A stretch of 64,000 nucleotides of DNA from Heterostelium pallidum. Lineage: Eukaryota. The translations under genes were made by a program, and so were the position numbers. Numbering within the stretch: the stretch's first letter is position 1; every line of letters begins with the position of its first letter. The DNA lies in contig NW_008805086.1 of NCBI RefSeq assembly GCF_000004825.1, forward strand, positions 965,410 through 1,029,409, written 5' to 3'. The notes beneath the pieces are model-generated. The model was not told where the DNA came from. It saw nothing but the letters and a program-made list of their open reading frames with translations, and searched no databases. Shown piece by piece: positions 57,501 through 58,655 of this stretch.

Positions 57501-58655
57501 AAATCGGCACAAGCTCCTCCACAACAACAACAACAACAAAAATTAGTTGCTGATCAATCTTCCTTACTTAATTCAATTAAAGAAGGAGCCAAATTAAAAA
57601 AGAAATCAGTGTCACATTCTTATTCCCCAACTGCACCATCTTACTCACCAACCTCACCATCTTACTCACCAACCTCACCATCTTACTCACCAACCTCACC
57701 ATCTTACTCACCAACCTCACCATCTTACTCACCAACCTCACCATCTTACTCACCAACCTCACCATCAATTAATCCGTCAGATTATGTCAAAAGTGGAGCA
57801 GCAGCAAGTGCAGGAAATATGAGACTGATGGACACTCTATCCTCTGCATTGTTTTCAAGACGTTCAACAGTTAAGTTCGACAGTTATTCTGAAGATGAGC
57901 CGAGCGATGACGATTGGGACGATGATTCACCAATGGAACAATTGAGTATCGATCCTGCTCCCAAGATGAAATATGAACAAAAGAAGGAGGAATGCTTGTC
58001 AGAAGAGGAAGGAGAAGATTTCAGAATGTCCTTGTTTGATGATGGTTATAGTGTACCTCTTACAGAACCAAAATATAACAAAGATATTGGTGCTCCACTT
58101 GCAAAATCGCAGCCAGAGAGAATCTATGAAGAATCAGAAGAGGATTGCGGTCTATTTGATGGAGATTTTGAACTTGAATTACTCGCAAAACCAGCTCCTA
58201 AGCCAATTTCTACTTCATCATTATCATCTTCATCAAGTGCCAAGAGATGCACTGTCATTGCAAACGATGACTCTGATGAGGACATGGGATTCGATTTGTT
58301 TGGCGACTACAGTCAGGAAGAAAAGAAAGCTTCACCACAAAAAGAAACGGAATCGATTGTTTGGAAACTCAATTCAGCAATCAACGGCAGAATTATGGAG
58401 GTTTTGGAGATTCTTGGTATCCCATTGAATGATCCGTTCATCCAAAAGGTTAATAAGAAAGAATACACCAGAGTGATAAACGAGTTGGTATTTGTTTTCC
58501 TCAAGCTACTCATCCATGATACAGAGGCTGCTCAAACCATGTTGAACAAGCTCAATAGATTGGCCCAAATCAAAACTGTACAAATCGATAGATATAGTCC
58601 AGCCTACTATTGCCTCAAGAGAACAAGATATGCACATCTCATTAAATCATTGTAA
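51509..58655 (+). CDS. PARP4 (vault PARP)-like protein, 2,327 codons: BRCT, PARP regulatory+catalytic, VIT and vWA domains, plus a long chimeric C-terminal extension
   Basis: Three exons (51509-51634, 51720-53230, 53309-58655) with phases 0 and 2. BRCT-like motifs are [19 protein letters not shown]. The PARP H-Y-E residues lie in LYHGS, GIYFG and [11 protein letters not shown] is [43 protein letters not shown]. vWA is [22 protein letters not shown]. The C-terminal modules are described in the findings. Confidence 0.85.
57621..57767 (+). repeat. Seven tandem 21-bp coding repeats giving 1x YSPTAPS plus 6x YSPTSPS
   Basis: The unit tacTCACCAACCTCACCATCT is repeated with perfect nucleotide identity in six units, in frame with the PARP4-like ORF. 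Confidence 0.95.

Follow-up and report, generated by a model that had tools for sequence, protein, structure and literature searches.

The 64,000-nucleotide stretch analyzed here (the window; contig NW_008805086.1, positions 965,410 to 1,029,409) comes from the dictyostelid Heterostelium album PN500, formerly Polysphondylium pallidum. It contains a three-exon gene for a poly(ADP-ribose) polymerase (PARP) homolog of the PARP4, or vault-PARP, class. A disordered linker in this protein harbors a tandem array of seven heptads of the kind found in the C-terminal domain (CTD) of RPB1 of RNA polymerase II (Pol II). Comparative sequence analysis is the basis of all results described below.

Translation of the three exons yielded an exact (100%) match to the annotated H. 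album PN500 protein P0001. The array is located in the last exon, within an open reading frame (ORF) of 1769 codons (53346-58655) that is unbroken over 5310 nt. The domains of the protein follow in the order BRCT, PARP, VIT, VWA, and 14-3-3-like; they are succeeded by a disordered linker of ~700 aa, rich in Ser (17%) and Pro (12%), and by a helical C terminus of ~100 residues (Table 1). In the PDB alignment, the C-terminal helices of the 14-3-3-like domain were very close to those of genuine 14-3-3 proteins, and alignment to 14-3-3 zeta indicated that the phosphopeptide-binding Arg127/Tyr128 positions are apparently replaced. After dictyostelid proteins, the best homologs were Balamuthia “parp4,” a protein from Acanthamoeba that carries the UniRef name poly [ADP-ribose] polymerase, and animal PARP4 or PARP4-like proteins, with E values down to 1e-211. 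An exhaustive homolog search agreed that the closest relatives are PARP4 proteins. Since both the domain architecture and the closest homologs are those of PARP4, the host protein belongs to the PARP4 class. A Pfam scan of the array-bearing protein revealed no RPB1 domains; the original prediction, which was made from the DNA sequence of the window and placed the heptads in a non-polymerase protein, was thus correct on this point.

A PARP4-like class with VIT, vWA, and an appended 14-3-3 has been described, with P. pallidum among its members, and the VIT/vWA class was found to be missing in Dictyostelium discoideum (Perina 2014, PMC4245714). Our own search for a D. discoideum ortholog, with the N terminus of the Dictyostelium purpureum protein as a query, returned 10 weak matches and missed the query’s own protein too. 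We attribute the lack of a D. discoideum ortholog to the absence of the VIT/vWA class from that species (PMC4245714).

The array consists of one YSPTAPS heptad followed by six YSPTSPS heptads, all in frame. This is the arrangement that had been predicted, and translation and Tandem Repeats Finder agree on it. The latter delimited the repeat to positions 57618-57766, with a period of 21, 7.1 copies, 96% matches, zero indels, and a score of 270. The first unit is encoded by TAT TCC CCA ACT GCA CCA TCT. The six YSPTSPS units had been described as identical in their nucleotide sequence, which holds in the phase that begins with the Ser7 codon (57639-57764), the sole phase with six identical units. 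When the repeat is read from the Tyr codon, five units are identical (TACTCACCAACCTCACCATCT, 57642-57746), whereas the sixth (57747-57767) ends with TCA and not TCT. With up to three mismatches allowed, the 21-mer unit was observed 6 times compared to 0 times in window shuffles that preserved dinucleotides, and a chance origin of the array is therefore excluded.

As an isolated 60-aa fragment, the array matched the Pfam RNA_pol_Rpb1_R profile (PF05001, cut-off of 20.3 bits) with 52.4 bits and an E value of 4e-14 in seven stretches; on the full 1769-aa ORF, the same profile scored just 16.6 bits, which is under the cut-off. The array contains 14 Ser-Pro sites and is internal to the protein, with the C terminus 295 residues away. 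Neither the RPB1 hallmark NADFDGD nor heptads other than those of the array were found within the 64-kb window. The possibility that the array is part of an RPB1 gene or pseudogene located in the window was rejected, since no RPB1 sequence is present there. On the opposite strand, the array is overlapped by a 63-aa ORF (57577-57768, minus strand), whose MVRLVSK repeats are the reverse complement of the array and which shows no signs of being a gene.

Table 1. Positions of features of the H. album PARP4 gene in the window (aa numbers refer to P0001 unless another protein is named) and of actin fragments in animal homologs.
Feature	Position	Strand	Basis or remark
Whole gene, exons 51509-51634, 51720-53230, 53309-58655	51509-58655	+	encodes the 2327-aa P0001
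Introns, GT..AG	51635-51719; 53231-53308	+	three-exon model
BRCT, aa 7-115, spans intron 1	51527-51938	+	Pfam, 26.7 bits (cut-off 21.3)
PARP_reg, aa 341-439, directly upstream of PARP			Pfam, 24.7 bits, slightly under the cut-off of 26.8
PARP catalytic domain, aa ~453-623, spans intron 2	52950-53540	+	Pfam, 93.1 bits, E 2e-26
VIT domain	53730-54062	+	Pfam, E 5.6e-36
von Willebrand A (VWA) domain	54477-54944	+	Pfam, VWA_3 E 3.4e-16, VWA E 3.7e-11
14-3-3-like domain	55581-56213	+	Pfam, E 1.3e-22; PDB 14-3-3 zeta, E 7e-24
RD/RE-rich run	56454-56588	+	translation, by eye
Charged tract	56619-56651	+	translation, by eye
RGG box	56685-56729	+	translation, by eye
Ser/Thr-rich FG-repeat region	56898-57287	+	Pfam Nucleoporin_FG, 15.6 bits, E 0.03, under the cut-off
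Proline-rich tract (PPPPPP, PPPPP), upstream of WH2	57291-57422	+	translation; orthologs share the order
WH2 (V) motif	57552-57605	+	ortholog profile matches N-WASP and WAVE1 WH2/VCA
CTD-type heptad array, 1 YSPTAPS then 6 YSPTSPS	57621-57767	+	21-bp tandem repeats, translation, PF05001
C helix	57816-57872	+	invariant L, L, RR columns; profile aligns to N-WASP and WAVE1
Acidic/Trp (A) motif	57888-57926	+	invariant W column; profile aligns to N-WASP and WAVE1
Two degenerate acidic and hydrophobic motifs	58002-58046; 58128-58169	+	translation, by eye
P-stalk C-terminal tail copy, internal	58263-58310	+	Pfam Ribosomal_60s; P0/P1/P2 profile
Small helical C-terminal domain	58344-58652	+	conserved among five dictyostelids
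Actin fragments, animal PARP4 (examples)	P0013 aa 1346-1398; P0022 aa 1422-1497; P0057 aa 1490-1555; P0017 aa 1417-1469		

CTD-type heptads in the linkers of PARP4 homologs

When the repeat was looked for in other species, CTD-type heptads were found in dictyostelid, Balamuthia, and animal PARP4 linkers. The amoebozoan cases are Cavenderia fasciculata, D. purpureum, a further dictyostelid, and Balamuthia; one dictyostelid protein (P0003) and Acanthamoeba lack the heptads. Among animals, heptads are present in the calcareous sponge Sycon (~12 units), the bivalves Dreissena, Ostrea, Saccostrea, Ylistrum, and Sinanodonta, the gastropods Nucella and Elysia, the annelid Owenia, the echinoderms Antedon, Strongylocentrotus, and Lytechinus, and the chordate Branchiostoma, with a degenerate version in Danio aesculapii. 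In the case of Antedon, both the precomputed Pfam list and our own scan reported PF05001, at 34.2 bits. Over 250 homologs, we counted 101 heptads by a relaxed pattern, while 200 shuffles preserving local composition produced a mean of 0.77 and a maximum of 4. Two or more heptads were carried by 22 of the 148 long homologs (at least 1500 residues) and by none of the 102 shorter ones. Heptads in the equivalent PARP4 linker span Amoebozoa and Metazoa, i.e., two eukaryotic supergroups.

The core unit is TAC TCA CCA ACC TCA CCA TCT in H. album, TAC TCT CCA ACA TCC CCA AGT/C in D. purpureum, TAY TCN CCA ACT TCN CCA AGT in Cavenderia, and TAC TCK CCT ACY TCT CCT TCT in Balamuthia. All nucleotide differences between the core units of these amoebae are synonymous, and units are nearly identical inside each array. 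The Ser7 codon belongs to the TCN family in two species and to the AGY family in the other two; no single synonymous step connects these families. Synonymous-only divergence between species combined with homogenization within arrays is consistent with concerted evolution acting together with selection for the peptide. The location of the array within the linker varies. In Cavenderia and D. purpureum, it is upstream of a poly-Pro/VCA block, and in H. album it lies between WH2 and C. In the further dictyostelid, where the WH2 pattern found no match, the array precedes the C-equivalent segment and is downstream of poly-Pro tracts; in Balamuthia, it comes after a P-stalk-like motif.

The presence of heptads in the linkers of other species, together with the synonymous nature of core-unit differences, suggests that the feature is old or has been repeatedly regained and is selected at the peptide level. 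The original prediction had read the array as a product of very recent expansion or concerted evolution. The near-identical units fit that reading as far as the current H. album array is concerned, but recent expansion does not describe the feature itself.

Other host-protein motifs in the linkers

In H. album, the heptads had been predicted to lie between WH2-like and C/A-like motifs. To characterize these flanks, we aligned the region from six amoebozoan orthologs, with the H. album heptads cut out, and obtained a profile with invariant columns L, I, K, L, L, RR, and W. Among solved structures, this profile matched the N-WASP VCA (E 5.6e-12), N-WASP 429-498 (E 8.9e-10), and the WAVE1 VCA (E 4e-7, aligned residues 215-277), from which we conclude that both flanks are genuine. 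The Pfam WH2 profile matched four of the six orthologs (best E 5.9e-6) and yielded an E value of 0.09 with H. album alone. The profile matches thus point to a complete WASP-type VCA module (WH2, C helix, and acidic Trp motif), with its order kept, inside a PARP, and the amoebozoan orthologs share this module. The H. album heptads split the V-C connector of this module, which is ~70 residues long compared to about 20 to 25 in orthologs.

Downstream of the VCA module, the linker contains a copy of the C-terminal tail of ribosomal P-stalk proteins, with an acidic run followed by a DMGFGLFD-type motif. The Pfam Ribosomal_60s profile aligned to it at positions 52-88 of 88 (23.4 bits, E 9e-5, under the cut-off of 28.1). 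Amoebozoan orthologs have one to four such copies each; when a profile of 12 P-stalk-like copies was compared to the PDB, all 28 of the 28 matches were P0/P1/P2 tails (best E 2.3e-6). The H. album copy is not C-terminal; GDYSQEE comes next, and the protein continues for over 100 residues beyond it. In the ribosome, the P-stalk tail is a docking site for translation GTPases and also for ricin/Shiga-type toxins. The two degenerate acidic motifs listed in Table 1 may be decayed copies of this tail. The likeness of other linker tracts to SR, RGG, and FG-nucleoporin proteins is weak or seen by eye, and the charged modules at 56454-56729 had no Pfam match. We therefore did not count the FG, RS/RGG, or degenerate acidic segments among the verified modules.

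Linkers of homologs carry pieces of further host proteins. In crinoid, sponge, sea anemone, and mussel homologs, the Pfam actin match is always confined to positions ~4-74 of the 410-position profile. Thirty-three homologs carry the D-loop motif GRP[RK]H.[GS].M.G, and almost all of these read VGRPRHQGVMVGMGQKD and then S/A-YVG. The animal actin piece, i.e., the first ~50 to 70 residues, is a conserved fragment and neither a whole domain nor a mis-joined gene. A complete ubiquitin and a fragment of the HSP70 substrate-binding domain are found in the linker of the Dreissena protein P0017 (aa 1321-1392 and 2177-2323). The Acanthamoeba homolog P0007 has a ubiquitin copy at aa ~1835-1910 that ends with RGP in place of RGG and is probably neither cleavable nor conjugatable. 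WH2 is present in sponge homologs, and the Oscarella protein combines it with half a 14-3-3. Sixty-four of the 148 long homologs contain at least one of the five modules that we scanned for. Additional actin, ubiquitin, and actin-binding domains have been noted in some members of the class (PMC4245714). Compared across lineages, the linkers resemble a varying series of faithful copies of segments from the most highly conserved proteins of eukaryotes.

The C-terminal domain of the H. album protein occupies a position equivalent to that of the MVP-interacting domain of animal PARP4 (human ~1570-1724). A mixed C-terminal profile matched human PARP4 1573-1705; this match is circular, since the profile includes mammalian sequences. 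A dictyostelid-only profile aligned to the animal/Acanthamoeba/Balamuthia profile with a nonsignificant hhalign E value of 0.085 and had no match in the PDB, and the AF2 model of the domain had a pLDDT of 53.8. A candidate similarity to the N-terminal domain of ribosomal P1 (phmmer E 0.69) was dropped because profile search gave no confirmation.

Two further sets of repeats were observed elsewhere in the window. Within the minus-strand ORF 60656-61885, a 93-bp tandem repeat (61282-61522, 2.6 copies, 92% matches) gives rise to a series of CCHC zinc knuckles (ACFKCNQTGHISRDCPE); the protein is rich in Gly and Asn, and the neighboring minus-strand ORF 58712-59497 may be part of the same gene. Two 12-bp tandem arrays (8690-8835 and 9117-9259) are located in the minus-strand low-complexity ORF 8155-9771 (538 aa) and correspond to tetrapeptide repeats of QTPI/QSPI and NTQN types.

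Possible roles of the heptads

Overall, the sequence comparisons give good support to three views: that the heptads represent a CTD copy maintained by selection, that this copy is located in a PARP4-class linker, and that it is one of several copies of hub-protein motifs there. The content of the linker further suggests that it displays look-alikes of key cell proteins. The original prediction had suggested that a CTD mimic could be a decoy or recruiter for CTD-binding factors, an idea with which the results are compatible. We tentatively favor the reading that the heptads serve as a bait, a pseudo-target bead among these look-alikes. According to it, the linker would be a beads-on-a-string display, in which the heptad bead would present a multivalent pseudo-target to proteins that recognize or modify the Pol II CTD. 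The binders would primarily be factors of pathogen or toxin origin whose targets belong to the conserved machinery of the host. Their engagement would take place beside the PARP catalytic domain and, if the C terminus docks as in animals, in or at the vault, where captured binders could be trapped, ADP-ribosylated, or sensed. Slippage or unequal exchange would sustain the number of repeats, and polymorphism in this number is probable.

A bait role is favored because the modules copy targets, and pieces like the actin fragment could function as displayed peptides only, and because module content and order turn over fast between lineages. It is also favored because the disordered linker of mammalian PARP4 is under recurrent positive selection, and a role as the interface between host and pathogen has been proposed for it (Daugherty et al. 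2014, PMC4038475). Last, the vault itself is gaining links of an immune type: the TIR-like NADase of the vault protein TEP1 is related to an effector of antiphage defense, and human PARP4 is anchored to the inside of the vault wall by its C-terminal domain (bioRxiv 10.64898/2026.05.01.722283).

Several points weigh against a bait role. Vault tethering in dictyostelids would be an extrapolation from animals. Repeated re-seeding of the array from the cell’s own RPB1 by gene conversion could mimic the synonymous-only pattern. Heptads are found in ~15% of long homologs, and the module is thus dispensable in many lineages; many of the animal homologs are automated gene models. CTD-recognizing enzymes are mostly nuclear, while PARP4 and vaults are mostly cytoplasmic. 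Finally, abundant host factors dock on motifs of the VCA, P-stalk tail, FG, and poly-Pro types, and recruitment of the cell’s own proteins would explain their presence equally well.

In such a recruitment model, the heptads would dock endogenous partners (CTD kinases and phosphatases or Pin1, WW, and CTD-interacting domain proteins) as substrates of the PARP or as cargo of the vault. The amoebozoan modules are all classical docking motifs for abundant host machines, and an apparently intact PARP catalytic domain is present on the same polypeptide. Vaults are widely held to carry cargo; those of D. discoideum enclose ribosomes, and proximity labeling with D. discoideum MVPA enriches several PARPs (PMC13100048). 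The actin and ubiquitin additions have been taken as functional ties to the cytoskeleton and ubiquitination (PMC4245714). However, the animal modules are fragments of hub proteins, such as a 50- to 70-residue piece of actin unable to fold or the HSP70 substrate-binding domain, and resemble a display of targets. Module content and order also turn over rapidly among lineages, and D. discoideum, the source of the ribosome-filled vaults, lacks this PARP4 class. We consider client recruitment the main rival, somewhat less likely than a bait role.

A functionless repeat, produced by slippage in a Ser/Pro/Thr-rich linker or by passive gene conversion from the RPB1 CTD, appears improbable. The perfect 21-bp units do indicate very recent slippage or exchange, the linker composition (17% Ser and 12% Pro) fits such an origin, and the module is absent in P0003, Acanthamoeba, and most homologs. 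Against this, local composition accounts for 0.8 of the 101 heptads, and heptads are spread over many phyla from two supergroups of eukaryotes. Divergence among amoebozoans is purely synonymous and includes the switch between serine codon families, and the arrays are accompanied by further host motifs copied with high fidelity.

We give little weight to the idea that the array is a phospho-regulated spacer, which would tune the engagement of actin and Arp2/3 by VCA through its length or proline-directed phosphorylation, with the CTD identity being incidental. In H. album, the array is exactly in the V-C connector, which it lengthens from ~20 to 25 to ~70 residues, and it contributes 14 Ser-Pro sites. 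Yet a long stretch separates the heptads from the V-C connector in the Cavenderia, D. purpureum, and Balamuthia proteins, and many animal homologs have heptads but no WH2 by the pattern used. In addition, the exact YSPTSPS peptide is kept through synonymous change, which a spacer would not need. An artefact (a wrong repeat number or frame, or an RPB1 fragment mis-joined into the gene) is highly improbable: assemblies can collapse or expand tandem repeats and one H. album genome was examined, but the 147-bp array is inside an unbroken 5310-nt ORF with conserved sequence on either side, the public annotation gives the identical protein, heptads are present in the orthologous gene of four other amoebozoan species with independent assemblies, and no RPB1 sequence occurs within the window.

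Relation to known systems and significance

The H. album array resembles the RPB1 CTD (PF05001) in its exact YSPTSPS tandem and in its degenerate edge unit, YSPTAPS, of the sort seen at the ends of genuine CTDs. It differs in having seven units, in its internal location in a disordered linker without an RPB1 core, and in its host, an enzyme of the PARP4 class, whose animal members are found mainly in the cytoplasm and in association with vaults. The rest of the H. album protein is like PARP4, with the same BRCT-PARP-VIT-VWA-14-3-3 series, a long disordered linker, and a small helical C terminus. The linker corresponds to that encoded by the rapidly evolving exon 30 of mammalian PARP4, which joins the ITIH-like part to the C-terminal domain (PMC4038475). 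In mammals, this linker is positively selected but otherwise featureless; in contrast, here it contains recognizable, conserved copies of host motifs. The module around the heptads is like the WASP/SCAR VCA in having WH2, C helix, and acidic Trp motifs and a proline-rich tract upstream, but it is internal to a PARP, is split by a 49-residue array, and is not accompanied by GBD, WHD, or SHD.

A precedent is the Nrd1-interaction motif (NIM) of yeast Trf4, in which a disordered segment of a different enzyme mimics the CTD and competes with the real one for a CTD-interaction domain (PMC4186968). The Trf4 motif is a single, divergent 9-residue peptide with acidic phosphomimics, whereas the H. album array has seven unmodified, consensus-type units and is known from sequence. 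The idea of CTD-like motifs outside RPB1 is not new (Trf4 NIM), but tandems of canonical heptads conserved across supergroups are not known from earlier work.

Integrated decoys of plant NLRs and the mammalian NLRP1 “tripwire” are look-alikes of pathogen-targeted host proteins inside immune receptors. By analogy, the PARP4 linker would place host look-alikes, in lineage-variable sets, in a putatively immune-linked protein. The carrier is different, being a PARP, and the look-alikes are many small linear motifs and not one folded domain.

The protein class and its 14-3-3, actin, and ubiquitin additions have been known since 2014 (PMC4245714). CTD heptads, a complete VCA, and P-stalk tails are not mentioned in that study (Perina 2014, PMC4245714), and our literature search found no report of these three features, or of a bait or mimic reading, for PARP4.

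Positive selection in mammals was earlier the sole functional clue to the PARP4 linker. To our knowledge, no settled function has been assigned to the vault particle and vault PARP since 1986. The results turn a featureless disordered linker into a source of testable hypotheses, concerning the binding partners of each bead, their nature as clients from the host or effectors from a pathogen, and whether binding is coupled to ADP-ribosylation. A broader, doubtful but possible reading is that PARP4 is an ancient multi-decoy sensor, whose modular, rapidly changing linker would imitate the proteins of the cell that are most conserved and most often attacked, and would lure effectors and toxins to the ADP-ribosyltransferase and the vault cage. 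Its display may then extend over CTD heptads, P-stalk tails, VCA, the actin D-loop, ubiquitin, HSP70, and 14-3-3. If true, this would mean an immune function for PARP4 and the vault since the common ancestor of amoebae and animals. The heptads themselves provide a clear case of canonical tandem CTD repeats kept outside RPB1 across supergroups, which bears on the specificity of readers of the “CTD code.”

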